Positions 21,563-49,551 of a stretch of 64,000 nucleotides of DNA are shown piece by piece. The position numbers were made by a program, and so were the translations under genes. Source of the stretch: a virus (lineage: Duplodnaviria; Heunggongvirae; Uroviricota; Caudoviricetes); IMG/VR virus record IMGVR_UViG_3300018065_000012; one strand, written 5' to 3'. The notes under the pieces are model-generated. The model did not search any database, was not told where the DNA came from, and saw only the letters and a program-made list of their open reading frames with translations. Position 1 is the first letter of the stretch. Every line of letters begins with the position of its first letter.

Positions 21563-21646
21563 TAAAGAGCTTAAAATTGTGTGTTCTATGTTTTGTGTTT
21601 TGCGTTGTGTGGCCGGTAATCGGTTCTTTTTACAAAGGGCGCTCCC

Positions 21647-22327
21647 ATGTCTGAAGTAATCACTTCTGAACGTAACTTCAAACAGGTTTTGAAAGAGGAC
21701 GAGATTTGTGATAGCCCATATACTCGTGAAGGGCTTGCCGTGCTCATTGCGGAAGGCGAAGCAAACGAGTTTGAGAAACAGCTTTTCCACGACTCCATTG
21801 TCCGCGCCATTTACACCATCGTTTTTCGCTACGGCGAATGCGATACGCGCGTGCCGGTGGAAGAGCTTGCGAACGACGCAGAATTGGCGTTGTGGAAGAA
21901 CCTGCCTTTCTTCAAAAAGGAAAAAGGCGTCAAGTTTATCACGTGGATGTGGCGTGTGGTTCGGAATCATGTGTTCAATCACCGCAAGCGGGTGACCCGT
22001 TATAGAACGAATCAGAAAATTACGACCAACATGTCTTCAGAGGAAAGCGAGTTTATCACGACTCGCGCTTGCGACGAAAGTCTTTCAAACGCAGACAAGT
22101 CGTGGCAGATGAAAAACGCCATGCAGTTGCTTTTTGATGCTTACCCGGAAAAGCAGAAAATGCTGCTCGCTCTTTTTGGCGATCCGTTTTCTGAAAACTT
22201 TTCAGGAAAGAAGCCGAACTTTGTCCGCGTGGCGAAAAAGTTGAAAACGAAAATGAACGATGTTCGGCGCTTTTGCAATCACGTTGCGTATCCGTTCTTG
22301 AAAAAGCACTTGGACGATCTGTTATAG
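21647..22327 (+). CDS. Phage-encoded RNA polymerase sigma factor (sigma-70 family, regions 2 and 4)
   Basis: KGVKFITWMWRVVRNHVFNHRKR matches sigma-70 region 2.3/2.4 (cf. YKFSTYATWWIRQAITR). The C-terminal region is HTH-like (region 4). Confidence 0.75.
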   Translation: MSEVITSERNFKQVLKEDEICDSPYTREGLAVLIAEGEANEFEKQLFHDSIVRAIYTIVFRYGECDTRVPVEELANDAELALWKNLPFFKKEKGVKFITWMWRVVRNHVFNHRKRVTRYRTNQKITTNMSSEESEFITTRACDESLSNADKSWQMKNAMQLLFDAYPEKQKMLLALFGDPFSENFSGKKPNFVRVAKKLKTKMNDVRRFCNHVAYPFLKKHLDDLL

Positions 22328-28267: not shown

Positions 28268-29431
28268 ATGGCTAAGGACAAGGATAAAAAGCGTGATAAA
28301 AAGCGCAGAGAACGCATCAAAAAACTTAAAGGCATCTGTGATAGTATCAACGGTGGTGATTTTGGGGGTGATAACAAAGACGCTGTTTTGTTCTTTGGCG
28401 ACGAAGATATTGAATCTGGAATTGAGTGGCTCCCCACGGGCGCAAAGACGTTGGATTGGGCTTTGGGCGGTGGTTGGCCTATGGGCCGCGTTTGTGCAGT
28501 ATACGGACCCGAGAGCGGTGGGAAATCGACCCTGTGTCTTCATGCAATTGCGGAGTTTCAAAAGAAATATACAGAGGATGAAGTCGCGATTGTTGATACT
28601 GAGTTCAGCTTTGACGTGGACTATGCAAAGAACCTTGGCGTAGATGTCGAGTTGCTTATGATTCACCAACCAGAGTCGGGCAATCAGGCGATGAACGTAA
28701 TTGATGAATTGATCGATAAAGGCACACGTCTGATTATTGTCGATAGTGTTGCAGCAATGACAACCGAAGCCGAATTGGAAGGTGATTATGGGGCTGCTCA
28801 TGTCGCAACACAAGCACGGTTGATGTCGCAAAGTTTGAAACGATTGGTTGGAAAAGTAAACAGGTCAAAAAGTTTGATTTTATTTACAAATCAGGTGCGA
28901 GAAAAGATTGGAGTCAAATGGGGGAAGAAAACGACAGAACCGGGCGGTCGTGCTTTGAAGTTTTACTCTTCTTGCCGCGTTGAGATTGTCGCAATTGGGA
29001 AAGACAAAGAAGGCGAAGAAGTAGTTTCAAACCGCATCAAGGCGACAGTAACAAAAAACAAAGTTGCGCCACCATTCCGCGTTGCCCAATTTGTAATAAC
29101 GTTTGGACACGGGATTGATCAAATCGCTGCAATTCTTGACGATGCTATTAACAAGAAGATTGTTGTTAAAAAGGGAGCGTGGTTCAGCCTTGGAAAAGGC
29201 GGGAAACCGCTTGGTCAAGGGCGAGGCAAGGTGCTTGACTTGATGCGTGCAGATGAAAACATTTTGAAAGAAATAGTAGAAAAGGCCGCAGCTACAGAAG
29301 CCCCAAAAGAAAAGACAGAAGAAACTGATTCAGAGCAGCCAGAGAAAAAAGCCCGGAAGCTTCCTACAGTCCCTTTTGATGATGAAAGTAATGATGATGA
29401 AGGAGAAGTCACCGTGGAGCCAGTTGAATGA
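28268..29431 (+). CDS. recA: RecA recombinase (bacterial RecA-like)
   Basis: GPESGGKSTL (cf. GPESSGKTTL), IIVDSVAAM (cf. IVVDSVAAL), GGRALKFYSS (cf. GGNALKFYAS), and a Lys-rich N-terminal extension. Confidence 0.9.
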   Translation: MAKDKDKKRDKKRRERIKKLKGICDSINGGDFGGDNKDAVLFFGDEDIESGIEWLPTGAKTLDWALGGGWPMGRVCAVYGPESGGKSTLCLHAIAEFQKKYTEDEVAIVDTEFSFDVDYAKNLGVDVELLMIHQPESGNQAMNVIDELIDKGTRLIIVDSVAAMTTEAELEGDYGAAHVATQARLMSQSLKRLVGKVNRSKSLILFTNQVREKIGVKWGKKTTEPGGRALKFYSSCRVEIVAIGKDKEGEEVVSNRIKATVTKNKVAPPFRVAQFVITFGHGIDQIAAILDDAINKKIVVKKGAWFSLGKGGKPLGQGRGKVLDLMRADENILKEIVEKAAATEAPKEKTEETDSEQPEKKARKLPTVPFDDESNDDEGEVTVEPVE

Positions 29432-30318
29432 ATCTACTTTTGATTGATGGAAATAATCTTGCCTTTCGAGTTCATTGGACGCACAAAAAACTAACATCAA
29501 AAGGCGTCCCAGTTTCTTTGCTCTATGGATTTTTCAGAAGCTTGGTTGCTTTGCGGAAAAAGTTTCCAAACTATTTTCCTGTTGTAGCTTGGGATGGCGG
29601 ATATGATCGGCGGTTAGCTGAATCAAAAATAGCAGTTGAAGAAGGTTTGATCCCTTCCGAATACAAGGCCAATCGAAAACGGGAACCAGACGAAGCACTG
29701 CCGCCGGATATTCAATGTATGTTTGAACAGCTGCCCGTGCTGAAGGAAGGTTTGAAATTTGCACGAGTAATGCAGGTTACGAGGAAAGGCGTTGAAGCCG
29801 ATGATATTATTTATACGTACGCAAAATACAATGATGAAAACGGCGGACTGAATGTTATTGTGACTTCTGATCAAGATTACTATCAAGTGCTTTCTGAAAA
29901 CACTCACGTCTATGACGCAATGAAAACTAATTATTGGACGCGCAAGGTTTTCATTGAAAACTTTGGATTTGAACCAGCGCTTTGGGTTGACGTAGGGGCG
30001 CTTGCTGGCGACAGTTCTGATAACATTCACGGAGTGCCCGGCGTTGGGGAAAAGTGGGCTGTAAAGTTTGTGAAGGAATATGGAGATGTTGATTGCGTCT
30101 TAAGTGGTTTGAGTTGCAAAGAGAAGCGCAAGAAAAAAGAACAGGCCGTTTTGGACAACGAAAAACGGTTGCGCGTTGCTCGGTCGTTGAAGAAAATGGA
30201 TAAGATTGACGCGTTACCGGGTTTGAAATGTGCGCCACGGAAAGCTGAGCCGTTGCTTCAATGGTTTGATCAATTCAGGTTTGAAACGTTGAAGCCTGAT
30301 GCGTGGAGATTACTATGA
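29428..30318 (+). CDS. 5'-3' exonuclease / flap endonuclease (Pol I 5' nuclease family)
   Basis: LLIDGNNLAFRVHW, VAWDGG, EYKANR, EADDIIY, VTSDQDYYQV, and H3TH GVPGVGEKWAVKFVKEYG. Confidence 0.85.
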   Translation: MNLLLIDGNNLAFRVHWTHKKLTSKGVPVSLLYGFFRSLVALRKKFPNYFPVVAWDGGYDRRLAESKIAVEEGLIPSEYKANRKREPDEALPPDIQCMFEQLPVLKEGLKFARVMQVTRKGVEADDIIYTYAKYNDENGGLNVIVTSDQDYYQVLSENTHVYDAMKTNYWTRKVFIENFGFEPALWVDVGALAGDSSDNIHGVPGVGEKWAVKFVKEYGDVDCVLSGLSCKEKRKKKEQAVLDNEKRLRVARSLKKMDKIDALPGLKCAPRKAEPLLQWFDQFRFETLKPDAWRLL

Positions 30319-30866
30319 CGGATGTTCGTTTAGGTATCATCGGGTCAGCAGGAACGGGTAAGTCAGGGCTTGGTTTGAGCGTTGCAAAAAAGTTGGATAT
30401 TCAATTTCTTGCAGCAAAAGACATTACACGCCCTATTCTTGAGAAAAAAGGTTATGATTGGTCCAGTGAAATTTTTGTCGAAAAATTCTTAGCTTTGGAA
30501 GTATGTCAAAAGGAAATCCTTGCAAAGACAGTAGAGACACAAAGCGAGTATTCGTCGTTTGTTACAGATAGAACAAGTATCGACCTTGCAGCATACGCAA
30601 TTCTTGAATTGCAAAAAGAAGTCGAGATAGTAGACGAGATAATTAACGCATGTCGTTCTCACGCAAATACTTACACACATTTGATTTTTTGTCCGTGGGG
30701 GATTGTACCAATTGAAGACAATAAAGTAAGGACTATAAATCCGTGGTATCAGTTTGCAGTACATAGCGTTATGATGGGAATCTTGATGGAATGGGACGTC
30801 CCTTTCAAGATTGTAAGCGGGACAGGGACCAGCCGCATCGATGATGTTTTGAGTTACGTCTCTTAA
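30315..30866 (+). CDS. P-loop NTPase, (d)NMP kinase-like
   Basis: Walker A GIIGSAGTGKSG. SD ggag 7 nt upstream of the ATG at 30315. Confidence 0.5.
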   Translation: MTDVRLGIIGSAGTGKSGLGLSVAKKLDIQFLAAKDITRPILEKKGYDWSSEIFVEKFLALEVCQKEILAKTVETQSEYSSFVTDRTSIDLAAYAILELQKEVEIVDEIINACRSHANTYTHLIFCPWGIVPIEDNKVRTINPWYQFAVHSVMMGILMEWDVPFKIVSGTGTSRIDDVLSYVS

Positions 30867-30962: not shown

Positions 30963-31418
30963 ATGGATCGTATAAAGCTGGCTCGCGAGCTTGTCAAAAT
31001 TGCAAAGCGACTTGTGTCTATTCCGATGGCCGTCGTTGATGCGAATCCATCTCAACTCAGAAGCATTCGTGACAAGATTCAAAGCGCGTTTCATTTGGGA
31101 TCAGCAAAAATAGTTGATGAGTGGTATGGAACCGTCGTGAGTGAAAGAAACGTTAAAGAGCAGCGTGGTGTTTTGAAAAAAGGACCAGACCATAACAAGT
31201 ACTATTACGTAGTTGTTTTTGACGATATGGAAAGAAGCGAGCACTACGTCACAGCCGCAAGTTGGGGGCGTATTGGAAAGAAATACATCTCCGGACAACA
31301 TCGTCAATCAATTCTGTATAAAGGCCCAGACAAACGTGACGCAATTGCTGCGGCAAATAAAAAGATTAACGCCAAGAGAAAATACAAAAAGACCAAGTTT
31401 ATGCCTTGGGGTTTTTAA
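30963..31418 (+). CDS. WGR-domain protein
   Basis: NKYYYVVVFDDMERSEHYVTAASWGRIGKKYISGQHRQSILYKGPDKRDAIAAANKKINAKRKYKKT matches the WGR domain consensus (W-G-R-I-G ... Q ... A ... K ... GY/YK). Confidence 0.7.
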   Translation: MDRIKLARELVKIAKRLVSIPMAVVDANPSQLRSIRDKIQSAFHLGSAKIVDEWYGTVVSERNVKEQRGVLKKGPDHNKYYYVVVFDDMERSEHYVTAASWGRIGKKYISGQHRQSILYKGPDKRDAIAAANKKINAKRKYKKTKFMPWGF

Positions 31419-31786
31419 TGCGGCGAAGATTATTACAACCATTGCGAATGCAACGCGATTATGGTCTGCCGGAAGACGCAGATGAAGATGATGTTTTGTG
31501 CAACACTTTGGATGCAGAAATTCATCAGAAAATTGCAGACCCAAAGCATGAAACGAGAATTGCGAAATCTGTTTTTGAATCCTTTTTCTCAGAACGGATT
31601 GTAAAGACAAAACGCGAGGTTAGGATTATAGCTGGAAAAGGAAAGAACATCAAGGAAGCTTTTTACAACGCTCTCGCAAACGACGAGGACGAATACGGAA
31701 TCGATGGCGGCTGGAACGCTATCCAAAGAGTCTTCCAAACTAAAAAGCGGATTGGCAAATGGATGTTCAAAGTAGAATTTGAATGA
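31418..31786 (+). CDS. Hypothetical protein (122 aa)
   Basis: ATG overlapping the TAA of the WGR gene (taATG). Confidence 0.4.
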   Translation: MRRRLLQPLRMQRDYGLPEDADEDDVLCNTLDAEIHQKIADPKHETRIAKSVFESFFSERIVKTKREVRIIAGKGKNIKEAFYNALANDEDEYGIDGGWNAIQRVFQTKKRIGKWMFKVEFE

Positions 31787-31795
31787 GGTATTACG

Positions 31796-32218
31796 ATGTC
31801 AAGAAGGATGAGAGCGCAGTGGGAAAAGAAGCCAGAGGGTTGGAATAAAGAAAGCATGAAAAAGTATTGGGAAACCCTTACGGGCGATGTAAAGCACAAA
31901 GTTACAAAGTGTATCAAGAAAATAGAAGAATCGGATTCAGGAATTACTGATGCCGGTGCATTTTGTGCTTCTCTTGCGGATAAGATTGAGGGAACGGCTT
32001 GGCGTCATGAACCCCGCAAAAAAAGGACGAAAAAAGCCATGGAAAAAACAGCCATGAAAATCGCATTCGAGAGGATTGTCGATGAGTGTCCTGATTGCAT
32101 GATGACAGCAAATGCAATGGAAGAAGTTTGCAAATCTTGTGCAGAGAAAATGCGCAAGAACAACATAAAAGCGATTAAAGCTTCTGCCGTTCTTGATGCA
32201 CTCAGAATTGCTGAATAA
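31796..32218 (+). CDS. Hypothetical protein with C-terminal Cys pairs (140 aa)
   Basis: CPDCMM...CKSCAEK. Immediately upstream of the tubulin-like gene. A TubR-like role is possible but unproven. Confidence 0.4.
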   Translation: MSRRMRAQWEKKPEGWNKESMKKYWETLTGDVKHKVTKCIKKIEESDSGITDAGAFCASLADKIEGTAWRHEPRKKRTKKAMEKTAMKIAFERIVDECPDCMMTANAMEEVCKSCAEKMRKNNIKAIKASAVLDALRIAE

Positions 32219-32247
32219 TCCACCGTCTTTTTTGGCGGAGAATATAA

Positions 32248-33663
32248 ATGGAAAAGAATCTTTGGGAACGTAAAGGTATCATCGGCGGTCATGAAATCAA
32301 GCCTGATGACAATATTGATTCTGCCAATAAGGAGAATATGAAAATGGCAAAGGACAAGAAAGACTTAAAGCTTGATCCGAATTTTGGAGACGAATCGCAG
32401 GAGCAAAATATGCCAAAGAGCGAAGAAAAACCAACGGAGGAAATTGTAGAAGCGCCAGCAGCAGGACTGTTTGTTCCAAATATTCCAATGCCTGTAACGG
32501 CAGAGGAAAGCAAGGAAATAATTAAGGACCAGTGCGAAGTAGCGTTCAAGATTGCTTTTGTTGGTGCAGGTCAAGCTGGCGCGAGGATGGTTGAAGCGTT
32601 CTACAAACTTGGTTATCGCCGCGTTTGTGCTGTAAACACAACCAGTCAAGACCTTGTTGCAATTGATATCCCAGATGAAAACAAGTTTGTTATGGACATT
32701 GGGGAAGGCGGCGCAGGCAAGGAACCAGAGAAGGGCGAACAGGCAGTCAAAAAGCATTATGAGAACGTTTATGATCTGATGCGTCGGAGTTTTGGAAAAG
32801 ACTTCGAACGGATTATTGTTTGTATCGGCGCTGGGGGAGGAACGGGTAGTGGATCAATTGAAACATTGATCGATATTGCTCACGACATTGCAGAGTCTTT
32901 CAAACTGGAAGGCGGACCGGAACAGGTACCGGCTGTTGGCGCGTTGGTTTCAATGCCGATGTCCAATGAGAGTCAGAAAGTAAACGCTAACGCTTCAAAA
33001 GTTCTTGAGGTTCTTTTTGGACGTGTTGGAAAAGACAAAGGTGGAAGATTGTCTCAAAGGACGATGTCGCCATTGATAGTTGTCGACAATGACAGAATCA
33101 GCAAACTATATCCGGGGTTGCCAGTTACGCAGTTTTGGAGCGTCGCAAATCAAAGCATCAGTGGGCTATTCCACTTGTTTAACAACATTGCGGCTGCGAA
33201 AGGCGAAAATACAATTGCGACGTTTGACCGTGCAGATTTCGCAGATGTCCTCAAGAGTGGCGTAATTACATTTGGAGCAACACCATTGATCAAATGGCAG
33301 AACGAAACGGATATCAGTTTTGCAATCAGAGAGAATTTGAAGCATAACATTCTTGTTGCTGATATTGATTTAGGCTCTGCGGCTGTTGCAGCAGGCGTTG
33401 TAATTGGCAAGGACAAAATTTTGAATTCTGTCCCGCAAGATTATTTGAACCATGGATTTGAAATGCTTGGACGGATCATGAAAACAAATAGCGTTGTCCA
33501 TCGTGGAATCTATAAGTTGGGAGAAGCGATGGATAACGTAAAAGAACAGCCGGATTTAGTCGTTTACACAGCATTTGGAGAACTCGGAAAGCCAGACGCA
33601 AGAATGGAAGAAATTCAACGTCTTGGCGCAGTCGATCAACAAAACAGAATGCGTTTGAGATGA
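32248..33663 (+). CDS. Tubulin/FtsZ-family GTPase (PhuZ/TubZ-like)
   Basis: Glycine-rich loop FVGAGQAGARM and the tubulin signature IGAGGGTGSGS (GGGTGSG). An alternative start with a strong SD is at 32344 (aaggagaatATGaaaATG). Confidence 0.75.
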   Translation: MEKNLWERKGIIGGHEIKPDDNIDSANKENMKMAKDKKDLKLDPNFGDESQEQNMPKSEEKPTEEIVEAPAAGLFVPNIPMPVTAEESKEIIKDQCEVAFKIAFVGAGQAGARMVEAFYKLGYRRVCAVNTTSQDLVAIDIPDENKFVMDIGEGGAGKEPEKGEQAVKKHYENVYDLMRRSFGKDFERIIVCIGAGGGTGSGSIETLIDIAHDIAESFKLEGGPEQVPAVGALVSMPMSNESQKVNANASKVLEVLFGRVGKDKGGRLSQRTMSPLIVVDNDRISKLYPGLPVTQFWSVANQSISGLFHLFNNIAAAKGENTIATFDRADFADVLKSGVITFGATPLIKWQNETDISFAIRENLKHNILVADIDLGSAAVAAGVVIGKDKILNSVPQDYLNHGFEMLGRIMKTNSVVHRGIYKLGEAMDNVKEQPDLVVYTAFGELGKPDARMEEIQRLGAVDQQNRMRLR

Positions 33664-34613
33664 GCAAACTTACAAAAGAACTTGTCCGCATTGCAAATGA
33701 AATACTTGGGCCAGAAATGCCCAAGCGCCCATTTGGGAAAACTGGATTTGATGTTGGGATTTTCTCATTGGGCGGTCAAGGTTCTTTGGAAACTCAAGGT
33801 GGCGAGAAAAATTGCCGCGATATTATTAGACGCGCGTTTGATTTGGGGATCAATTATTTCGACACAGCACCGGCTTACGGGCCGTCGCAAAAGTTTTATG
33901 GTGAGGTGATTCCTGATTTCAGAGACGAGATTTTTCTCGCGACAAAAACAAACGAGCGCACAAGAGATAAGTCGCTTGAGCAACTTGAAGATTCATTGAA
34001 GACGCTCAAAACAGATTACATTGATCTTTGGCAGATTCATAACATTGGAAACATCGACGAAGTAAATCAAGTCACTGCAAAAGACGGTTCATTAAAAGCT
34101 TTGATTGAGATGCGCGAACAAGGCGTTGTGAAGCATCTTGGAATTACTGGGCATTCGCATCCAGAGCCATTGCTTGAATTGATGAGTCGATTTGATTTTG
34201 ATTCGGTACTTTGCCCTTGTAATCCTGCGGATGCGGCAATGGGCGATTCTTTTGAAGAAATGCTTATTCCAAAAGCAGACAGTCGCGGGATGGGCATTGT
34301 TGGAATGAAAGTATTTGCCCAAGGACGTATTTTTCATCCTGAAAGCGTTACAACTCCGTGGGAGACCGTTTCGTTCGCTTTGTCTCAACCAGTCAGTACG
34401 ATCATCGTAGGGCACGACACGCCGGAACAACTTGAAGAAAATGTAGCTATTGCAAAAGCGTTTCACAAATTAAGCGATAAACAACAAAAGGAAATTATAG
34501 GCAGGGCGTCAGATCATAAAGAACGGGGAGCTTTTTTCCGTAAAGAGTTTGGTGGTTATGATTCAGGGAAGAAATTCAAACGGCTCATGGTTCAAAGGCG
34601 AGGGAGGCTATAA
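33660..34613 (+). CDS. Aldo/keto reductase family oxidoreductase
   Basis: INYFDTAPAYGPSQKFYGE, FLATKT, DYIDLWQIHN, HLGITGHS. These are canonical AKR motifs. Confidence 0.8.
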   Translation: MSKLTKELVRIANEILGPEMPKRPFGKTGFDVGIFSLGGQGSLETQGGEKNCRDIIRRAFDLGINYFDTAPAYGPSQKFYGEVIPDFRDEIFLATKTNERTRDKSLEQLEDSLKTLKTDYIDLWQIHNIGNIDEVNQVTAKDGSLKALIEMREQGVVKHLGITGHSHPEPLLELMSRFDFDSVLCPCNPADAAMGDSFEEMLIPKADSRGMGIVGMKVFAQGRIFHPESVTTPWETVSFALSQPVSTIIVGHDTPEQLEENVAIAKAFHKLSDKQQKEIIGRASDHKERGAFFRKEFGGYDSGKKFKRLMVQRRGRL

Positions 34614-35694: not shown

Positions 35695-36060
35695 ATGAAA
35701 GAATTTTCCGTAGAACAAATCATAGAGATTATGCGTCGTTCGCTTGCGTCTGACGAATTTGCGTATCATATTGCGCCCTCATGGTTTGTTAGTGATACAT
35801 TCTATTTGACAAAAATCGACCCGCGTTTTCCCGGTATCCACATCGCTTCAAAATCAGGATTTTCACGTACCCCAAATGCTCCAATTATTGTCGAGAGGCG
35901 ATTCAGCCGTTTCACTTCGAAGTACATCGTGTTAGACGGTCAAAATAGGGTGGAATACGCCAGAAAGCACGCCGTTTCGAGCATCCCAGCCTACGTTGGG
36001 AACAAAGCCCTTGATGTCATTGAAGAAGCGACTGAATGGGCTAAAAATCAGAAAAAGTGA
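35695..36060 (+). CDS. Small ParB/Srx-fold-like protein (121 aa)
   Basis: YIVLDGQNRVEYARKHAVSSIPAYVG resembles the ParB N-domain DGxxRxxA...IP motif. Confidence 0.35.
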   Translation: MKEFSVEQIIEIMRRSLASDEFAYHIAPSWFVSDTFYLTKIDPRFPGIHIASKSGFSRTPNAPIIVERRFSRFTSKYIVLDGQNRVEYARKHAVSSIPAYVGNKALDVIEEATEWAKNQKK

Positions 36061-36092: not shown

Positions 36093-37013
36093 ATGACCAA
36101 AATTATTGTCTACGCGGATTTCCACGTCACTGGAAAACGCCCCATCCACCGCATTGATAAATTTTCTAACAACCTGATAGCAAAGTTACTTGAGGTTTAT
36201 CAGATTGCGGATGACGCCGCAGTCGACTGCGCGCTTTTTCTGGGCGATTTTTTCAATAATCATCGCATTTTTAGTTACGAAATCCTCAATGACGTGATGG
36301 ATATTATTTGTGATGCGAGGGTGACGACTTACGCAATCATTGGGCAACACGATTTAGTTGGATACAACGAGGGCAGTTATGCTTCGTCAACGTTGAATTT
36401 TATGGAGAGACATTGCTGTCAACTTAAAACGATCCGCACTCCGACAGATGTTGGCGATGCGATTTTGTACCCTTGCCATTGCTATGATAATTTTTTGCAA
36501 GCATTCGAACGGCCTGTATCGAGAAAAAAGAAGGCAATTCTTGCCGCGCATCATCTTATCACGGATTCGAGCAAGCCTTTCAAAACGTACTTAATTCAGG
36601 ATTTTCTGCCCTGCAACTACAGCGCTGTTGTGTTTGGTGATTATCATTTAGGAATGAAACCCAGCGGTGACGACAAGACGTTAGTTTGGTCTCCCGGCGC
36701 ATTGGCGCGACTTGCGATCAACGAAAAAGGCCGTAAGGTTAAGGTAGGAATATTGACAGCAGTTCCGGGCAAGCCGGTTGAAGTTGAAGAAATCGAGTTG
36801 AAGTCTGCGCTGTCGGGAGAGGAAGTTTTCGGAACATCAATCTTAGAAGGCGTGCGAGAACAACCGGAGATGGTAGACGCATCAGGATTCGTCCAACGGA
36901 TTCGCGAACTCGAAGCCGAATCTACTGACGTCTTTGATATGATTGAAAAGGCAGCAAAGCAAAAGGGCATCCGGAAGGAAGTTATTGACTATATTTTGAA
37001 AAAAAGAGCATAA
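36093..37013 (+). CDS. Mre11/SbcD-like calcineurin-fold nuclease
   Basis: Phosphoesterase motifs YADFH (I), LGDFFNNH (II), IGQHD (III), AAHH (IV), VFGDYH (V). Confidence 0.75.
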   Translation: MTKIIVYADFHVTGKRPIHRIDKFSNNLIAKLLEVYQIADDAAVDCALFLGDFFNNHRIFSYEILNDVMDIICDARVTTYAIIGQHDLVGYNEGSYASSTLNFMERHCCQLKTIRTPTDVGDAILYPCHCYDNFLQAFERPVSRKKKAILAAHHLITDSSKPFKTYLIQDFLPCNYSAVVFGDYHLGMKPSGDDKTLVWSPGALARLAINEKGRKVKVGILTAVPGKPVEVEEIELKSALSGEEVFGTSILEGVREQPEMVDASGFVQRIRELEAESTDVFDMIEKAAKQKGIRKEVIDYILKKRA

Positions 37014-37026
37014 ATGCTTTCAGCGG

Positions 37027-37036
37027 GTTGTATAGT
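37027..37036 (+). promoter_or_regulatory. Promoter-like motif variant GTTGTATAGT, copy 4
   Basis: Sequence tttCAGCGgGTTGTATAGTtaaaag. It shares the CAGCG prefix with copy 8. Confidence 0.35.
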
Positions 37037-37074
37037 TAAAAGTTATCAAACGTCTTTCGTTCAGGAGGTACAAA

Positions 37075-38253
37075 ATGCCAGAAGATGAATTTGCTGAGAT
37101 TGCCGAAGAAGTAGTGCAGACAACGACAGCTCCGAGGAAAGCAAAGAAAGCAGAAAAAAAGGAGGAAAAATCCCGTAAGAAACCAAAAGGTTCAAAACCC
37201 CCGAAAGAACGCAAACCGAAGGCAACTAAGCGGGAAAAGCTTATCAAAAACGTCCTGAAGAACGCCAAGGTTCAAAGCATTCCGACTGTCGACGAGTTGT
37301 TCAGCAAGCGTTCGGGTGATAAAATGAAGATCAAGAAAATTGCCGTTTTCTTGAGCAACAAACCGGGCGATGAAATTCTCGACGAGTTGGCGGAACAGCT
37401 TTCCATTCCAAACACGGTCAATCTTTCAACAGAAGTTGATCTCAAGCAAGTAAAGAAAGTAGGCATCCAGATTCTTGAAGCGGGAAAAGTTTGGATGTCC
37501 ATTGAAGTTGCAAAGCTGAAGGACGGTTCGAAGAATCACGAATGCTGGTCTGGCCGTCATCGTCTTGCTTTTCTTGCTCTCCTTTATGGACCCGATGCGG
37601 AAATCCCGGTCGAAATTTGCTCTATGACAACTCAAGAAGCCAGAGACGCTGTCGTTTACGCAAACAGCAGTCGCAAGGTGCTTGGACTTGAACAGGCAGA
37701 ACATTGCGCAATGAAAGCAACAGAAGGTGCGCCAATGGAAGACATTGAGCGTGATGAGTTGTACGCGAAGATGGCAAGGGCGAAAAAGGGAGCCGTCGAT
37801 TTCGGATTGATCACATTGATGGATTTGAAAGTCAAGGGATTGAAACTGAAATTTGATATTTCAAAATCTGCAAGCCGTGCCGAAGGTAATTGTTTGACCA
37901 CGGTGAAAAACATTCGGGGATTTATCAACACTGCAATGGAAGAGTGGACGAAGACGACAACGCGGAAAGAGTATGATGAAACGCTTTCGGAAGCTGTGGC
38001 GTATCTTAATGCAATTGTTGAAGCGCTTAAGACGCTTGAAGGGTTTGATCCTACTCAGCAATTGGCGGCAAAGCCGCTTTCCGCGCTTGGAAAACTGTTC
38101 AACAAATTTGGCGCTTCCAGCGCAAAGCCGCACGAATATGGCGAGATGATTGCGGAAATCTTGATTGGTCTTGGCCAAATCGGGAGACACAAAGCAGGCG
38201 AAACGTTGAAGCAGTTGGTCCAAAAGCTCAAAGAGGCCACCACTAAAGAATAG
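37075..38253 (+). CDS. ParB-like nuclease-domain protein with Lys-rich N-terminus (paralog A)
   Basis: ECWSGRHRLAFLALLYGPDAEIPVE contains the ParB GxRRxxA-like motif. It is clearly paralogous to the 53122..54618 protein. Confidence 0.45.
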   Translation: MPEDEFAEIAEEVVQTTTAPRKAKKAEKKEEKSRKKPKGSKPPKERKPKATKREKLIKNVLKNAKVQSIPTVDELFSKRSGDKMKIKKIAVFLSNKPGDEILDELAEQLSIPNTVNLSTEVDLKQVKKVGIQILEAGKVWMSIEVAKLKDGSKNHECWSGRHRLAFLALLYGPDAEIPVEICSMTTQEARDAVVYANSSRKVLGLEQAEHCAMKATEGAPMEDIERDELYAKMARAKKGAVDFGLITLMDLKVKGLKLKFDISKSASRAEGNCLTTVKNIRGFINTAMEEWTKTTTRKEYDETLSEAVAYLNAIVEALKTLEGFDPTQQLAAKPLSALGKLFNKFGASSAKPHEYGEMIAEILIGLGQIGRHKAGETLKQLVQKLKEATTKE

Positions 38254-38267
38254 TAACTGAAGGGGAT

Positions 38268-38295
38268 GGCGGGGGAGCGTCAAAACTCCCCCGCC
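38268..38295 (+). other. GC-rich hairpin (10-bp perfect stem) without a U-tract; candidate RNA structure or factor-dependent terminator
   Basis: Arms ggcgggggag and ctcccccgcc around the loop cgtcaaaa, 15 nt before the start of the next gene. Confidence 0.4.
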
Positions 38296-38310
38296 ATTAG
38301 GTAGGTTAAG

Positions 38311-39276
38311 ATGATCCGTGGTTACGATGAGCGCACCGGACACACTTTTACATTCCGTGATAAAAAACCTGTTTATGAAGGGCGGCAAAAAAACCTTGAA
38401 GACAAACAGCCATGTCCTTGGTTTGAAGCAGAAATGCTTGCAACGCGGATGACGTGTACTTTTCCTTGTGAACCACTGTACGTTTTCCTTTCGGATGAGT
38501 GTTACAAAGTTTTTCATTGGTCTGGAAAATACGTTTACGAAAAGGCCACCCCACCAAAAAACTTGGAGTATGTTGCTTTTGTTAAAAAGCCAAAGCCTGA
38601 CGTTTTGGATCGCTATCCAAACGCAAAAGCTTATGCGTTGAACATCGGCGACGCTCATGATGCTCTTGGTTTTTTGTTCTACAAGGTTTTGCGCAAGCAT
38701 CCCACAACTGTTCCAAAACATTATTGGTTTCTCAAACCATTTGAACATCGAAATCCGTATGGTTTCGGATATGAACGTTTGTTGCAAGGAGATGCAGCCG
38801 GGAAAATTGCTCACTGTTGCGCTACCGGAACGCCAGCATTGAACCGGAGATATTCTGTTGTCAGGGACAATGGATTTGATGGGAATTTTTTACTTCCTGA
38901 ATATGCAGGGAAAGACACGATTTGTTTGGTTGAAGCGCAGAACGTTGAAACACTTTTACCACGGCTGTCTATTTCTTGGCGATATGCGGCTATGTGTAGC
39001 CCAATGAGAATTGATAATGAAGAACCTTTTGAGAAGGCAACAGGAATTGATTCAAAACGCATAACGCTTCGGGTCGTCAGCGCCAACGATAGCGAAGATA
39101 TAACGGCATTTATGCAGTTTTGGAACATAATCACAGGTGGGAAATTGGTTGCTTTTTCTCATAAACAATACCTTCCTAAATTGTATAATAGGATGGCGCT
39201 GTTTCACTATTTTGATTATTGCGTAATTGAGGGAAAAAATGCAATTGGCAATGTTATACGAGAAGCATGGTGTTGA
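38311..39276 (+). CDS. Hypothetical protein (321 aa)
   Basis: Protein-like composition. Its 3' end contains promoter copy 5 for dnaE. Confidence 0.45.
   Translation: MIRGYDERTGHTFTFRDKKPVYEGRQKNLEDKQPCPWFEAEMLATRMTCTFPCEPLYVFLSDECYKVFHWSGKYVYEKATPPKNLEYVAFVKKPKPDVLDRYPNAKAYALNIGDAHDALGFLFYKVLRKHPTTVPKHYWFLKPFEHRNPYGFGYERLLQGDAAGKIAHCCATGTPALNRRYSVVRDNGFDGNFLLPEYAGKDTICLVEAQNVETLLPRLSISWRYAAMCSPMRIDNEEPFEKATGIDSKRITLRVVSANDSEDITAFMQFWNIITGGKLVAFSHKQYLPKLYNRMALFHYFDYCVIEGKNAIGNVIREAWC
39180..39189 (+). promoter_or_regulatory. Promoter-like motif ATTGTATAAT, copy 5 (inside the 3' end of the upstream CDS, upstream of dnaE)
   Basis: Sequence cctaaATTGTATAATagg, 50 nt upstream of the dnaE ATG. 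SD gaggga at 39229-39234. Confidence 0.35.
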
Positions 39277-42200
39277 GGACAAGTTAAAAGGCGGGAAGAA
39301 AATCCTTTTAGTTTGTCCAGAAAAAGGCTATGATATTTCCAGCGCCATTGACGAATTTTTGTTCGATGAAACGCAATATGAAATTACTTGGCCCAAGTCA
39401 AAAGATTCAACGGTTGCCTATGATATTTTGATGGAAGAGTGTAAATTCAGCGGGGCTGAATTGATCCTTCAGTTGAATTGCAAGTTTACCAAGAAGCTTT
39501 CTTGGTGCAAAGCAGATGGAAGTTGTAGTCCGGGTTTGACGGAAAAGATCAATAGAGTCCGTGGGCAGCTGTTTGTGAACCTTCACCATCATGATGAATT
39601 TTCGATTCGAGACGGTCTTGGGAAAATTGAAGATTTGGTAAAGCTTCTTCAAAGCCGCGATCAGACTATTTGTGCTGTAACTAATCATGGCGCAATTGGT
39701 GGGTGGATTAAACAATATAATCAATGTCGAAAAGCAGGCATTAAACCGCTGTTCGGAATTGAGGCGTATATAAACAATTATCGCGGTGATGATCCAGAGG
39801 AAAGAAAACTCCACCGGAGCAACTTTCATTTGGTGATGTTGGCGCGGAATCTTGAAGGCTTTTACAACATCATCAAGATTCATAACGAAGCACAACTGAA
39901 TGGCTTTTATTATAGGCCACGGTGTAATCATAAAACAATAACTGAAAACGGCAAGGGGATTATAGGGACTTCTGCTTGCTTTTCTGGGGAGATTCCTCAA
40001 GCACTTTTGAAAGATGATTTCGCAAAGGCAAAAGAAATTTATGAGCTTTACAAGGAAGCATTTGATGAATTTTATATTGAATTGACGATGATTGAATGGG
40101 ATGATCAGGTTGAAATGAACCGTAAACTCATTCAATTTGCAAAGCAAGTCGGAGCGCCATTGATTGTAACCTTGGATAGTCATTACCTGTATCCAGAGTT
40201 TGCAGACACGCACGATATTCTTTTGTTAATCAGGGATGGCAAAACGGTTTTGGACAAGGTTGAAAAGCCAGAGGAGGTTTGGCAGTTTGACGTTCGCAAT
40301 TTGTATTACCGAGAAGAAAAAGACGTGTGGCAACTTTGGGAAGAGAAATACAAGGATGCGGTTTTTACGAAAGATATTTTGACTGATGCGATTGAAAACA
40401 CCCGTCGGATTGCAGTAAAGATTGATAACATCAAACTGGACTCGGCGTTCAAGTTGCCAAAGCTGTATAAAAACGCAGACGAGGAGTTAAAAGCGCATGC
40501 TCGTGAGGGCTTGAAACGCCTTGCGTTGAATTCTATTCCCAAATACAATGAGCGTTTGGAATATGAGTTGGAAGTTATTACCAAACTTGGTTTTGCTGGC
40601 TATTTTCTCGTCGTTGAAAAAATTGTCAAAGACACCAAAGAAAAGTTTGGAGAATGGTCTGTAGGTTACGGGCGTGGCTCTGCGGGAGGTAGCTTAGTTT
40701 CTTATGCTCTGAACGTTACAGACCTTGATCCAATCAAATATGGATTGTTGTTTGAACGCTTCCTTGATCCGGGAAGAAAAGATGATTGCCCGGATATTGA
40801 TTTGGATTTTCAGCGACACGCTCGTGAGTGGGTTAAGCAACACGTGATTGAGGAATTTGGCGAAGAGCATGTTTGCGCCATTGGAACATATCAAACATAC
40901 AAAACTGCATCTGTTATCATTGATTGCGCTCGTGCCTTGGGTTTGAACGTTTGGGAAGCGATGGAAGTTACAAAAAAGTTTCACGGTTTGACGACGTTTG
41001 AGCTTGATCAGAGTGGTGATGCTGAGGCTATGTCCGTTGACCAAATGGAATTTGAAGATTTGTTCCGGCACTATCCCGAACTGGAGCAATACTTTGAGCA
41101 ATACCCGGACGTTTATCAACACGCAATGGTTTTGCGGAATCAAGTCAAGAATATGGGAAAACACGCTGGTGGCGTTATTATCAGCGACTTGTCATTGCAA
41201 AATTACGTTCCAGTTTATCGAGACAAAGGTGGAGAAAGAGTTTCAACATGGACTGAGGGTTTGGCAACGCACGAATTATCAGCTGTAGGATTAATCAAGT
41301 TTGATTTGTTAGGGTTGAAGAATCTTGACATTATTCAAGACACAGTAAACTACATCGAAAAGACTCGTGGAAAACGGTTACGCAAACAGGATATTGATAT
41401 AAACGATAAGAAAGCTATCCGAACGAGTTCAAAGCAGGATTTGGTTGGGATTTTCCAATTTGAGAATCCGGCAACCAAGCCAATTTCGGACGCTGTTCGT
41501 ATGGAAAGCATTTTTGATATTGGTGCTGTAACGTCTTTGATTCGTCCCGGCCCACGCGACATGGGGATGGATAAACAATATTCAGAGCGCAAACATGGAA
41601 TCAAGAATTACAAATTGCTTGATTGTTTGAAATCTGTGTTGTCTGAAACTTACGGAATCATTGTTTATCAAGAACAAGTCATGAAAGTTTCGGAGCAGCT
41701 TTCTTATTTCGAGCCAGAAGAGGCAAATCGTTTCAGGAAAGTTTTGGTGAAGGAAAAGAACCCAGAAATTCTTGAAAAAATGCGCATAAAGTTTGTTCAG
41801 GGCGCACAAAAAAGAGTTCGCAACGGAGAAGTCAGCCAGCAAGAAATTGAAGATTGGTGGGAGTTGTGCAAGGCGTTTGCTGGATATGGGTTTTGCAAAG
41901 CCCACGCATTTGAATATGCTGCTGTAAGTGGTGCCGAGTTTTGGCTCAAATATTACTTCCCAACAGAGTTTTTGACGGCGCTGATGAATAACGCTTCAAC
42001 TACGGGAGGAAAAAACGCATTACCCGGTCATGTGAAGTATATCAACTATGCGCGGAAAATCGGCCTTAACGTTGAGGGGCCATCTGTAAACAAAAGCGGA
42101 AGTCAATTCCGTATCAATAGTGGAAACATCGTGTTTGCTTTAAGCCATATCAAACAAGTTGGAAAGTCTGCCGCATTGATTGAAGAAATGCAGCCGTTTT

Positions 42201-42751
42201 CAGGAGTAGATGATTTTTTCAGCCGCATTCCAAAGCGACAAGTAAACAAGCGCGTGTTTATGAGTTTGGTTGGCGCAGGAGCGTTTGATGAGTTCGGAAG
42301 CAGAAACGAAGTTCAAGAAAACTATTTCAGATTGAGGAAAGAAAAGACATATCCTGACCCGTTGACAGATGAACAGTGGCAGGAAAAAGAATCTGAAGTG
42401 CTCGGAATTTGCTTGACAAGAAAGCCAATTCTCTTACAATACAAGAGCAAGATAAAACAAAACCGTTGGAGTACTATTGGGGAAGCAAGTAATCGCGGAA
42501 CGTCTACGATGATTTTTGGGCGAATTACAAATATCATTCGGAAGACTTCCAAGAACGGAAATGAGATGCTCGTTGTTACGCTGAGCGACGATATTGATTC
42601 GATGAAGTTTTACGTCTGGAGCAGTGCTTTTATGATGTTTACGAGGCTTGTTAAAAAAGGATACATCATTGGAGCACCTTTGAAGAAATTTGAAGATGGC
42701 GATGCGCGTTATCTGGATATAGGGAAGGATATAATTGTTGTAAGCAAGTGA
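39239..42751 (+). CDS. dnaE: DNA polymerase III alpha subunit (DnaE family, N-terminal PHP domain)
   Basis: PHP motif LFVNLHHHDEFSIRDG. Polymerase core motifs GYGRGSAGGSLVSYALNVTDLDPIKYGLLFERFLDPGR and PDIDLDF. Confidence 0.9.
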   Translation: MQLAMLYEKHGVEDKLKGGKKILLVCPEKGYDISSAIDEFLFDETQYEITWPKSKDSTVAYDILMEECKFSGAELILQLNCKFTKKLSWCKADGSCSPGLTEKINRVRGQLFVNLHHHDEFSIRDGLGKIEDLVKLLQSRDQTICAVTNHGAIGGWIKQYNQCRKAGIKPLFGIEAYINNYRGDDPEERKLHRSNFHLVMLARNLEGFYNIIKIHNEAQLNGFYYRPRCNHKTITENGKGIIGTSACFSGEIPQALLKDDFAKAKEIYELYKEAFDEFYIELTMIEWDDQVEMNRKLIQFAKQVGAPLIVTLDSHYLYPEFADTHDILLLIRDGKTVLDKVEKPEEVWQFDVRNLYYREEKDVWQLWEEKYKDAVFTKDILTDAIENTRRIAVKIDNIKLDSAFKLPKLYKNADEELKAHAREGLKRLALNSIPKYNERLEYELEVITKLGFAGYFLVVEKIVKDTKEKFGEWSVGYGRGSAGGSLVSYALNVTDLDPIKYGLLFERFLDPGRKDDCPDIDLDFQRHAREWVKQHVIEEFGEEHVCAIGTYQTYKTASVIIDCARALGLNVWEAMEVTKKFHGLTTFELDQSGDAEAMSVDQMEFEDLFRHYPELEQYFEQYPDVYQHAMVLRNQVKNMGKHAGGVIISDLSLQNYVPVYRDKGGERVSTWTEGLATHELSAVGLIKFDLLGLKNLDIIQDTVNYIEKTRGKRLRKQDIDINDKKAIRTSSKQDLVGIFQFENPATKPISDAVRMESIFDIGAVTSLIRPGPRDMGMDKQYSERKHGIKNYKLLDCLKSVLSETYGIIVYQEQVMKVSEQLSYFEPEEANRFRKVLVKEKNPEILEKMRIKFVQGAQKRVRNGEVSQQEIEDWWELCKAFAGYGFCKAHAFEYAAVSGAEFWLKYYFPTEFLTALMNNASTTGGKNALPGHVKYINYARKIGLNVEGPSVNKSGSQFRINSGNIVFALSHIKQVGKSAALIEEMQPFSGVDDFFSRIPKRQVNKRVFMSLVGAGAFDEFGSRNEVQENYFRLRKEKTYPDPLTDEQWQEKESEVLGICLTRKPILLQYKSKIKQNRWSTIGEASNRGTSTMIFGRITNIIRKTSKNGNEMLVVTLSDDIDSMKFYVWSSAFMMFTRLVKKGYIIGAPLKKFEDGDARYLDIGKDIIVVSK

Positions 42752-45176: not shown

Positions 45177-45212
45177 ATATTGTGAAACAAGGCTGATTTG
45201 ACGGAGAGAAAA

Positions 45213-47111
45213 ATGGCTGATTATGATGCTTCAAGTATTCGAGTTTTGAAAGGGTTGGCGGGCGTTCGCAAGCGTCCTGCTATGTATATTGGCGATACAG
45301 GCAAGTCCGGTTATCATCATTTGGTCTGGGAAATCCTTGATAATTCCATCGATGAAGCGGTAGCGGGATTTTGCAAGAACATTGCGATCAAATTCGCAGA
45401 TGATGGTCGTGTTCAGATTAACGATGATGGACGCGGAATTCCTGTTGAAAAACACCCCACTGAAAAAATTCCCACCGTCGATGTTGTGCTTACAATGCTT
45501 CATGCTGGTGGAAAATTTGGCGGGACCGACACAAAATACCGAACGTCGGGTGGCCTTCATGGTGTAGGTGCCGCAGTAGTCAATGCGCTTTCAGAACGCA
45601 TGACCGTCACAATTAAGCGTGATGGGAAAATTTACCTGCGAGAATATGAGCAAGCGAAGCCCACGAAGAAAGAAGTTGATGTAGTTGGTAAGTGCGGAAA
45701 ACGCGAAACAGGGACAGAAATCATTTTCAAGCCAGATAAGTCGATTTTCAAGCGGTGCGAATTTGATAAAGAAATCATTCAGCGAAGGCTGAGAGAATTG
45801 GCTTTTTTGAATGCCGGTTTGAGGATCAAGCTGTTCTGGGCGCTTGATGGAACAGAGGAAGAATTTTGCTCCAGCGACGGTCTCGTGGGCTACGTGAATT
45901 ATCTTACAAAAAGTAAAGAGTTGATTCATGGCCCAGTGAGAATGCATTCTGGCGATATTGAAGGAAGCGAACTCGATATTGCTTTCGTCTATGACAAAAA
46001 ATATGACTCGCAGATTCACTCCTTTGCGAACAACATAGCGACACACGAAGGTGGAGTTCATTACAATGCTTCGTTAGATGCGCTTTGCAAAGCGGTTGAA
46101 GATTACGCTGCCCCGCAAATCAAGAAGTTGCGGCTTCGTATTAACAAAAGCGACGTGATGGAAGGTTTGACGATGATCGTCAGCGTGCGTATTGAAGACC
46201 CGCAATTTGGCGGTCAGACAAAGACGAAGCTTGGGAATGATGATTTGCGCCGTCCGTTGGGAGAATGGATTCAGGGTAAAGTTCTCAAATTGCTCAAAAA
46301 GCACCGTCAGCACGGCGATGCGATTGTTTCAAAAATCATCGATGCGGTCAAGGTCAGGGACGCTGCCAGAAAAGCAAAAGAAGTTCAGAGAAAAAAGAGC
46401 GTCATGGAGATGTCCGCATTGACTGGAAAGCTCAAGGATTGCACGAGCAAAGACCCTGAGCTGTGTGAACTGTTTTTGGTTGAAGGAGATAGCGCCGAAG
46501 GCCCAACGGTTCAAGCGCGAGACCGGCAATTTCAAGCTGTCCTGCCGCTACGCGGAAAGCCGTTGAATATTCACGGCAAACCATTGGGTCGATGCTTAGG
46601 AAACAAGGAAATTGCTTCGATTGTTTCTGCGTTGGGCGTTACAATTACAAAACGGGAAGTTTTGATTGATGACTTGCGTTATCATAAAATCATTCTTCTT
46701 GCGGACGCCGATCCTGATGGTGGTCACATCACTTGTCTTTTGATGACGATGTTTCACGAATTCATGCGCAAGCTTATCGAAGCAGGACACCTGTATGTTT
46801 GTGAAATGCCCTTGTACCGAGTACGATATAAGGGCAAAGGTAGTTACATCAAAGATGCCGCTGCGTTGGATGAGTTCAAATCAGAACATCCCGGTGAAAA
46901 AATTGAAGTCAGCCGTTTCAAAGGTTTAGGAGAAATGAGAGTTGAAGACCTTGAAGAAACGGCAACAAACCCAAACACGCGTGTTTTGCGCCAAGTGAAA
47001 ATCGAAGATCAAGTTCAGGCGCATGAAATTGTAGATTGTTTGATGGGTAGCGACGTTCAGGCAAGGAAATTATTTCTTAAGAAGTCGCTTCGCTTTGAGG
47101 ATGATGAATAA
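45213..47111 (+). CDS. gyrB: Type IIA topoisomerase subunit B (GyrB/ParE-like)
   Basis: GHKL ATPase [30 protein letters not shown] and PLRGKPLN. An alternative TTG start is at 45198. Confidence 0.9.
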
Positions 47112-49543: not shown

Positions 49544-49551
49544 GGTGAAGA

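Follow-up and report, generated by a model that had tools for sequence, protein, structure and literature searches.

The locus analysed here raises the question of what a tubulin-like protein could do in a very large, uncultivated phage. It lies in a 64,000-nucleotide stretch of the IMG/VR record IMGVR_UViG_3300018065_000012 (Caudoviricetes), referred to below as the window, which represents a co-directional portion of a very large genome. The source phage measures at least 338 kb, as the 140-aa protein encoded by a gene next to the tubulin was found with 100% identity on a 338,319-bp contig. An open reading frame (ORF) of the window placed at 32248..33663 on the + strand, coding for 471 aa in its longest form, had been attributed in the initial annotation to a tubulin/FtsZ-family GTPase similar to PhuZ or TubZ. 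PhuZ centres and rotates the chimallin nucleus, and TubZ acts with TubR and tubC in the segregation of plasmids and of an episomal prophage. The evidence presented below upholds the tubulin assignment and places the protein in a large, so far uncharacterised phage tubulin family, restricted to phage and metagenome sequence. Its product is probably a stand-alone tubulin forming GTP-driven filaments that act on phage material, with a PhuZ-like function that would require neither a nucleus nor TubR/tubC.

Judged from its sequence and predicted structure, the product of this ORF is a tubulin/FtsZ-superfamily GTPase with intact nucleotide loops and T7 aspartates and a TubZ-like fold. It matched the Pfam family PF00091 (Tubulin) with 44.3 bits and an E value of 3.3e-11, above the gathering score of 33 bits, and PF13809 (Tubulin_2) below threshold. 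The two motifs on which the assignment had been founded were located in the protein, the glycine-rich loop FVGAGQAGARM at 32557-32589 (residues 104-114) and the tubulin signature GGGTGSG at 32833-32853 (residues 196-202), the latter within IGAGGGTGSGS (residues 193-203) and in agreement with the superfamily pattern [SAG]GGTG[SA]G. Residue conservation was read from an alignment of the tubulin with 25 homologues of 43-65% identity (hereafter A1). The T1 nucleotide-binding loop GAGQAGAR (residues 106-113; 32563..32586, + strand, as for all elements of this gene) preserved G106, G108, Q109, G111 and R113 without exception, and the T3 loop GEGGAGKEP (32701..32727), which is the gamma-phosphate sensing region and aligns to the GAG loop of FtsZ, was invariant from G155 to K158. 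Likewise, the T4 loop carrying the tubulin signature (32833..32853) was invariant from G194 to G202, including G196, G197, G198, G200 and G202, and so were P237 and E241 of the T5 region and N248. In the T7 loop TFDRADFADV (33220..33249), F326, D327 and D330 were invariant, and a HMMER alignment placed D327 and D330 on both aspartates of the N-V-D-F-A-D segment of Methanocaldococcus jannaschii FtsZ. The T7 aspartates complete the active site of the neighbouring protofilament subunit, activating GTP hydrolysis. Across lineages, the T1, T3, T4 and T7 residues thus conserved in the alignment are under strong purifying selection. The genome scans reported here covered the ORFs of the 64-kb window out of at least 338 kb of phage genome, and no second tubulin paralogue was found in the window.

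The comparison with proteins of solved structure gave a consistent order of relatedness. A phmmer search against all PDB chains retrieved TubZ (RepX) of pXO1 (4ei7) with an E value of 2.7e-13, archaeal FtsZ at about 1e-8 and TubZ-Bt at 0.013, and PhuZ was absent at E <= 1. When the A1 profile was compared with the PDB sequences, RepX was again the best match (1e-20), followed by archaeal FtsZ (4e-15 to 7e-15, with M. jannaschii FtsZ at 7e-15), TubZ-Bt over its full length (3e-12), CetZ (3e-11) and, in the N-domain only, the TubZ of phage c-st (6e-10). An AlphaFold2 (AF2) model built on the A1 alignment reached a predicted local distance difference test (pLDDT) score of 90-98 over residues 91-460, except for two loops, with a mean of 81 and a predicted template-modelling score (pTM) of 0.77. 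A Foldseek ranking of this model against PDB was headed by TubZ 4ei7 (E 5.8e-25, target-normalised template-modelling (TM) score of 0.78), over about 400 columns that included the C-terminal helices; the TubZ structures 2xka, 2xkb and 3m89 followed, and then M. jannaschii FtsZ, CetZ and bacterial FtsZ. The Foldseek probability was 1.00 to TubZ, FtsZ and CetZ, with target-normalised TM scores of up to 0.82, which points to the two-domain tubulin/FtsZ fold with its Rossmann-like GTPase domain, helix H7 and C-terminal domain.

The part of the initial proposal that referred to TubZ held as a resemblance. TubZ/RepX of the Bacillus elements pXO1 and pBtoxis (PDB 4ei7, 2xka, 3m89) was the best match in both sequence and fold, is also borne by mobile elements and also ends in a tail that is basic rather than acidic. 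However, its identity to the window tubulin is only about 20%, the C-terminal tail of the latter is much shorter, neither TubR nor tubC iterons adjoin the gene, and the window family has an N-terminal [VI]PDIP[ML]P motif of its own preceded by a disordered extension of variable length. Moreover, genes of the window family belong to modules for lytic replication or head genes in very large phages rather than to a locus for the maintenance of a plasmid or prophage. The Pfam model TubZ-like_C (PF22453) gave weak matches, only in some homologues. Among phage tubulin homologues outside Chimalliviridae, the TubZ of Clostridium botulinum phage c-st (PDB 3v3t, 4xcq), which reportedly belongs to a TubR/tubC/TubY operon, and the GTPase of Bacillus phage G were both more distant than plasmid TubZ (profile E 6e-10 and tblastn E 0.04, respectively).

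The likeness to PhuZ did not extend beyond a tubulin-superfamily gene in a jumbo phage and an analogous proposed role. The phiKZ PhuZ (gp39; gp59 in 201phi2-1) gave a BLASTP E value of 0.071 and an hhalign probability of 72% (E 3.4e-5, N-domain only); no tblastn match to PhuZ phages was obtained at E <= 10, and PhuZ was not among the top 60 PDB sequence matches of the A1 profile nor among the top 50 Foldseek matches. The window tubulin is also about 140 aa longer and lacks the acidic C-terminal 'knuckle' that PhuZ needs to assemble filaments. Membership of PhuZ was rejected on the BLASTP value, the lack of tblastn matches and the tail. Archaeal FtsZ and CetZ, for their part, were second-tier matches in sequence and fold, and the H0 region, T3 and T7 align with M. 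jannaschii FtsZ; however, the window gene is phage-encoded and carries no FtsZ C-terminal peptide. FtsZ orthology was rejected as well, since the NCBIfam ftsZ equivalog TIGR00065 scored 62.4 bits (E 4.6e-17) against a cut-off of 295.2 bits. The C-terminal peptide of FtsZ has the consensus D-I-P-x-F-L-R, and no FtsZ-type C-terminal linker or peptide was seen in the A1 family alignment when compared with this consensus. By sequence and model, the protein is a catalytically complete member of the superfamily and falls outside the TubZ, PhuZ and FtsZ families as currently delimited.

The extent of the family was assessed in a set of 5.8 billion proteins, in IMG/VR, in 185,579 prokaryotic species represented by one genome each and in 50,697 GenBank phage records. 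The protein set yielded 531 relatives, the best of them 100% and 67% identical, and almost all were metagenomic and either unnamed or automatically called 'cell division GTPase FtsZ'. An exhaustive search among 50%-identity representatives recovered 306 clusters at E <= 1e-30 and 1031 at E <= 1e-10, and IMG/VR contained 544 loci. In the prokaryotic genomes there were only 3 matches, all on contigs of metagenome-assembled genomes. No cultured relative was found among the GenBank phage records, where the best match was the tubulin-like gene of Bacillus phage G already mentioned; one Alicyclobacillus plasmid matched at 3e-6 (tblastn), and no PHROG family matched the window tubulin. The best viral structure in BFVD was UniProt A0A6J5RW92, an uncharacterised 'FtsZ cell division GTPase [uncultured Caudovirales phage]' (Foldseek E 9e-36, 26% identity), indicating that relatives are already present in public databases under automatic FtsZ names. 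Contigs bearing the family reach 100-338 kb, with lengths of 186, 230 and 298 kb among them.

Some relatives of 750-1200 aa (P0171, P0183, P0064, P0121, P0122, P0194, P0200 and P0205) could have been taken for tandem 'double tubulins', an interpretation that was rejected because they are single tubulins split by inteins. They presented the hallmarks of such elements, namely Cys at +1, a junction of HN with S, T or C, and LAGLIDADG-type blocks. The insertion points coincide precisely with the T1 loop (GxGQGG^C...HN^S) or with the T4 signature (GAGGG^C...HN^TGSG). Such inteins in the GTP-binding loops, a common trait of conserved phage genes, add to the evidence that the gene is important to these phages. 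An intein in a gene of the tubulin/FtsZ family is not known to have been described, and a full-text literature search gave no tubulin-gene intein among its 12 top-ranked titles; one paper that it returned describes an intein in DNA polymerase B. An intein was also observed in another gene of a related locus (L003), whose DnaE (L003:15133-20004) has 1623 aa versus 1174 aa in the window; the additional stretch of about 390 aa begins GC|LTPGQ..., ends ...VAVHN|CE, and is placed between residues corresponding to ~177 and ~179 of the window DnaE.

The genomic position of the tubulin was compared in 84 related loci, on which all the neighbour and synteny counts and the clustering of neighbour families given here are based. 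In 12 of them, including loci with 58-67% tubulin identity (L001-L007, L009 and L067), the gene occupies a replication module, as in the window. The order kept in these loci is RecA, 5'-3' exonuclease/flap endonuclease (FEN), an AAA_28 gene, none or one further gene, the tubulin, small genes, an Mre11-like gene, two other genes and DnaE. In the window, the conserved upstream block (28268..30866, + strand), syntenic with L001-L009 and L067, comprises RecA (28268..29431), the 5'-3' exonuclease/FEN (29428..30318) and the AAA_28 P-loop kinase-like gene (30303..30866), all recognized by Pfam. The downstream block (36093..42751, + strand) starts with an Mre11/SbcD-like metallophosphoesterase (36093..37013), followed by two genes without known function, and ends with a DnaE-type polymerase III alpha subunit (39227..42751), whose identity to that of any cultured phage is only about 30%. 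A second context, present in 53 of the 84 loci, has the order sigma factor, unknown gene, ERCC4 nuclease, large terminase (TerL), 657-aa gene, tubulin, small membrane proteins and further unannotated genes, in which only the sigma factor, ERCC4 and TerL are annotated. In a third context (12 loci), GTP cyclohydrolase I and a 178-aa gene precede the tubulin, and an oppositely oriented block follows it; the remaining 7 loci had various surroundings. Clustering of the neighbours revealed no family common to the three main contexts. The tubulin is probably a long-standing gene that has been kept vertically in a lineage of uncultivated jumbo phages.

In the protein itself, two features specific to the family are found at the ends. 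The initial annotation had described the start as ambiguous and the N-terminal extension as long, and both descriptions proved accurate. Each of three ATG codons is preceded by a Shine-Dalgarno-like sequence: GGAG with a 7-nt spacer at 32248, AAGGAG with a 9-nt spacer at 32344 (M33) and AGGAG with a 6-nt spacer at 32410 (M55). Independent assemblies call a gene of either 471 or 417 aa (P0001), many homologues start at the equivalent of M33 ('MAKK...'), and the N-terminal W[KR][KR][VL]..HG peptide of the long form is common to only 7-11 of 239 relatives. Homologue comparison and Shine-Dalgarno sequences leave three candidates, and the start codon is in this sense ambiguous. The 29-nt spacer in front of the longest form (32219..32247) contains an imperfect hairpin, CCACCG-TCTTTTTT-GGCGG, which overlaps the GGAG of that start and might influence the choice among them.

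The extension is nevertheless a real feature of the protein, in which about 100 residues precede strand S1, placed by the AF2 model from residue 102 onwards. Residues 1-71 (32248..32460) are K/E-rich and predicted to be disordered (pLDDT <50), and the length of this part varies widely among relatives, in which the K/E-rich disordered stretch before the proline motif measures from ~10 to ~75 residues. The motif in question, PNIPMP (residues 77-82; 32476..32493), matches the family consensus [VI]PDIP[ML]P and lies some 28 residues ahead of the T1 loop. In A1, P82 is invariant and P77, I79 and P80 are conserved at >=90%; in the wider family, 105 of 190 relatives had the motif, always 26-28 residues ahead of T1. 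Whichever of the three starts is used, the proline motif and the GTPase are retained. At the other end, a short, slightly basic tail, AVDQQNRMRLR (33628..33660), follows the last helix. As had been stated at the outset, it is not acidic: the last 22 aa hold five K+R against four D+E and terminate in ...NRMRLR. Averaged over the family, the net charge of the last 12 aa is +1.1, and it is positive in 66% of the members. Only about 10 net basic residues extend past the last helix, versus the long, flexible TubR-DNA-binding tail of TubZ. It may be speculated from these sequences that the N-terminal [VI]PDIP[ML]P peptide on its flexible linker and the short basic tail are candidate contacts with the filament lattice or with cargo.

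Taken together, the conserved GTP-binding and T7 residues, the TubZ-like fold, the phage-only distribution, the fixed genomic positions and the lack of a conserved partner suggest filaments acting on phage material. According to this explanation, which we regard as probable, the tubulin would assemble into GTP-dependent cytomotive filaments in the infected cell, and these filaments would position or move replicating DNA, the replication factory or procapsids. The function would be like that of PhuZ, but with no chimallin nucleus and no TubR/tubC centromere system, and the carriers would be a jumbo-phage lineage depending on a sigma factor. The location among replication genes in one lineage suggests phage-DNA positioning, and the location beside the terminase in another suggests capsid traffic; filament formation, cargo and timing of expression are all predicted here from sequence and model. 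The sigma factor announced for the same genome was confirmed at 21647..22327 (+ strand; Sigma70_r2, 1.7e-9) as a member of the sigma-70 family; it has a homologous position in L003, and a sigma factor is also found in relatives with the terminase context. It suggests the use of the host RNA polymerase core. If the host enzyme reaches the phage DNA, a chimallin shell would be a poor fit.

Several points weigh against the stand-alone filament explanation. Polymerisation is predicted only from the conserved residues and the fold, and the AF2 model has low confidence at the N-terminal proline motif (pLDDT ~52). The closest solved relatives are the TubZ proteins of plasmid partition, whose basic tail is shared, so that a partition role is conceivable. 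As the window covers 64 kb out of at least 338 kb, the rest of the genome may encode a chimallin or a TubR-like adaptor or contain a centromere. Finally, a portal or major-capsid identity of two neighbour families in the terminase context (F1 and F11) was a guess from size and position with no PHROG, Pfam or PDB support, and was abandoned; this context is therefore stated only as the tubulin lying after TerL.

The explanation that takes the TubZ resemblance furthest is a TubZRC-like type III partition motor, which would ensure the segregation of a phage genome kept outside the chromosome, as a prophage or pseudolysogen, in the manner of c-st, pXO1 and pBtoxis. That TubZ is the best sequence and structure match speaks for it, as does a C-terminal tail which, though short, is net basic like those of TubZ; moreover, most of the genome lies outside the window, and an unlinked TubR-type adaptor may be encoded there. 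However, an identity of about 20% is low, and no winged-helix or other DNA-binding gene adjoins the tubulin in any context type, as neither Pfam nor PHROG revealed a DNA-binding domain in the adjoining families (F1, F5, F18 and F60). The small Cys-pair protein encoded just upstream, which the initial annotation had suggested as a TubR-like partner, shows no TubR-like fold and also occurs without tubulin. No tubC-like iterons, direct-repeat family or tandem array were detected near the gene, the sole tandem repeat within about 2 kb being two copies of a 15-nt unit inside the upstream ORF, and no integrase or ParA/ParB was seen among the window ORFs scanned. In addition, the gene is co-directional with lytic replication and recombination genes or, in other lineages, stands beside the terminase. 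Lacking a TubR-like neighbour and iterons, the TubZRC reading fails two defining features where they could be tested, near the gene, and we consider it rather unlikely.

The second-tier matches could instead be read as the signature of FtsZ mimicry, in which the protein would block or redirect host cell division during infection by co-assembling with the Z-ring of the host, by poisoning it or by capturing proteins that bind FtsZ. Archaeal and bacterial FtsZ were significant matches, the NCBIfam ftsZ model among them (E 4.6e-17), and the conserved D-I-P motif near the N-terminus may be seen as loosely similar to the first residues of the FtsZ C-terminal peptide. The equivalog score of 62 bits versus 295, the precedence of TubZ over FtsZ in sequence and fold and the lack of an FtsZ-type C-terminal linker or peptide argue otherwise. 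Besides, the family spans phages of very different environments and is about equidistant from all cellular FtsZ, so that host-specific mimicry fits poorly; overall, this explanation is improbable. Still less credit can be given to a divergent PhuZ that would centre a chimallin-type nucleus encoded elsewhere in the genome, which appears highly improbable in spite of the jumbo size of the phage, of the at least 274 kb of its genome outside the window and of the fact that PhuZ is the known jumbo-phage tubulin (PMC10299810). To the sequence and fold distances from PhuZ and the missing acidic tail is added the gene content: instead of the set of multisubunit RNA polymerase genes with which tubulin co-occurs in jumbo phages, this phage carries a sigma factor and DnaE, and neither a chimallin-like match nor a multisubunit RNA polymerase was found among the window ORFs scanned, which represent 64 of at least 338 kb.

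The preferred explanation of stand-alone filaments can be extended to a third, independent phage cytoskeleton beside PhuZ and TubZRC, a proposal that is possible but should be taken as tentative. It would consist of a TubZ-derived stand-alone tubulin of jumbo phages that form no nucleus and depend on the host RNA polymerase; it would organise replication factories and/or deliver capsids, making its contacts via the N-terminal proline peptide on a disordered linker and not through a C-terminal tail as in FtsZ, TubZ and PhuZ.

In the literature, the phage and plasmid tubulins described are PhuZ in Chimalliviridae, TubZ in plasmids and phage c-st, and a tubulin-like gene in phage G. The documented roles of PhuZ are the positioning of phage DNA and the traffic of capsids (PMC10299810). 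In cultured jumbo phages, tubulin co-occurs with multisubunit RNA polymerases and a nucleus (PMC7824862); for huge metagenomic phages, 'tubulin homologues (PhuZ)' were mentioned in general terms only (PMC7162821), and the main text of a recent phylogeny of the tubulin superfamily is without phages or viruses (PMC9871819). Literature searches found no description of the window family, which is not proof that none exists. The novelty lies not in a new principle but in the tubulin family itself, which is large and distinct, occurs in uncultivated phages, bears terminal motifs of its own and lacks a known partner system. This family breaks the pattern of cultured jumbo phages, since it is large, purely metagenomic and carried by very large phages with a sigma factor, DnaE, gyrase and RecA, is not accompanied by recognisable partner genes and holds a fixed place in a replication module or next to the large terminase. 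Should filaments form, the use of a cytoskeleton for intracellular organisation by large phages would extend far beyond Chimalliviridae. As a single gene open to heterologous expression, the family would also be a tractable test case for the way in which a tubulin reaches its cargo when neither TubR nor a nuclear shell is present, and an N-terminal interaction peptide would be of interest in a superfamily that otherwise uses C-terminal tails.

Regarding the immediate surroundings, the gene was correctly described as lying between a WGR-domain gene (30963..31418, + strand; PF05406, 2.3e-7) and an aldo/keto reductase (33660..34613, + strand; PF00248, 9e-34), with two small genes between the former and the tubulin. 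These are a 126-aa gene (31406..31786, + strand) and that of the 140-aa Cys-pair protein (31796..32218, + strand). The WGR gene, the 126-aa gene, the aldo/keto reductase, a 79-aa membrane protein and a 121-aa ORF had no homologue in any of the 84 loci, and the same five genes recur in independent assemblies of the source phage, indicating lineage-specific cargo inserted around a fixed tubulin position. The WGR and aldo/keto reductase genes are thus not functionally linked to the tubulin. A stand-alone WGR protein is in itself unusual cargo for a phage. Promoter and terminator scans performed no better than shuffled sequences.

The 140-aa protein is a neighbour and not a demonstrated partner of the tubulin. 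It combines a conserved helical domain of ~65 aa, W..KLPKGW..S..KFW..LTGDVKHKVTKCIK.M...D.GAFCASLAD.VEG..WR, with a CxxC-x9-CxxC module (CPDC-x9-CKSC), and this CxxC/basic-helix module is N- or C-terminal to the domain in different homologues, that is, in permuted order. Pfam gave no helix-turn-helix (HTH) and nothing above threshold, only a weak sub-threshold match to DUF5760. Its AF2 model is confident (pLDDT 85) and all-helical, and no PDB match was better than E 3.5, none of them winged-helix. Of the 84 loci, only 4 (L001, L002, L006 and L009) have a homologue of it immediately upstream of the tubulin, and other homologues occur in unrelated neighbourhoods without tubulin (L092 and L093). 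The suggested TubR-like role was rejected on these grounds: no HTH, no fold match, adjacency in 4 of 84 loci and occurrence of the domain elsewhere without tubulin. The ~65-aa domain is spread over many uncultivated phages (homologues P0124-P0170). One of the loci without tubulin (L093, JGI 3300033143), on an unrelated phage contig, also encodes a Pfam 'Volactin' protein and a 2949-aa protein with laminin-G repeats.

Downstream, the 121-aa ORF (35695..36060) shows by eye a stretch resembling the N-terminal part of ParB/Srx (PIIVERR...YIVLDGQNRVEYARKH..SSIPAYV), and it is an ORFan in the 5.8 billion proteins, its own copy aside. Together with a 392-aa ORF at 37075..38253, which had a 16-bit PRTRC-ParB match, it was considered as a ParB-like adaptor, and both were discarded as they had no Pfam, PDB or homologue support.

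Along the whole window, the gene order begins with a tape-measure-like protein of 2146 aa and unannotated large proteins, an SNF2 helicase, a DnaB-like helicase and a Toprim primase, and continues with the sigma factor, a DEAD helicase and uracil-DNA glycosylase (UDG), followed by RecA, the 5'-3' exonuclease, the AAA_28 kinase-like gene and the tubulin. After these come the Mre11-like phosphoesterase, DnaE and a DHH phosphoesterase, then GyrB, GyrA and an NAD-dependent ligase, and finally an AAA_23 ATPase and a glycosyltransferase. The region 45198..52058 encodes GyrB, GyrA with C-terminal beta-propeller repeats and a full-length NAD-dependent DNA ligase with a BRCT domain. A gyrase and a ligase of its own beside DnaE, the DnaB-like helicase, the primase, RecA and UDG give the phage an unusually cell-like replication set. 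Within the window, three copies of a 17-nt tandem repeat were observed at 18792-18842, followed by an A/G-rich degenerate repeat at 18857-18935, in the ORF 18457..19263. Furthermore, an intergenic TGTGTTT repeat of 4.6 copies (21577..21611) is placed just upstream of the sigma-factor gene.

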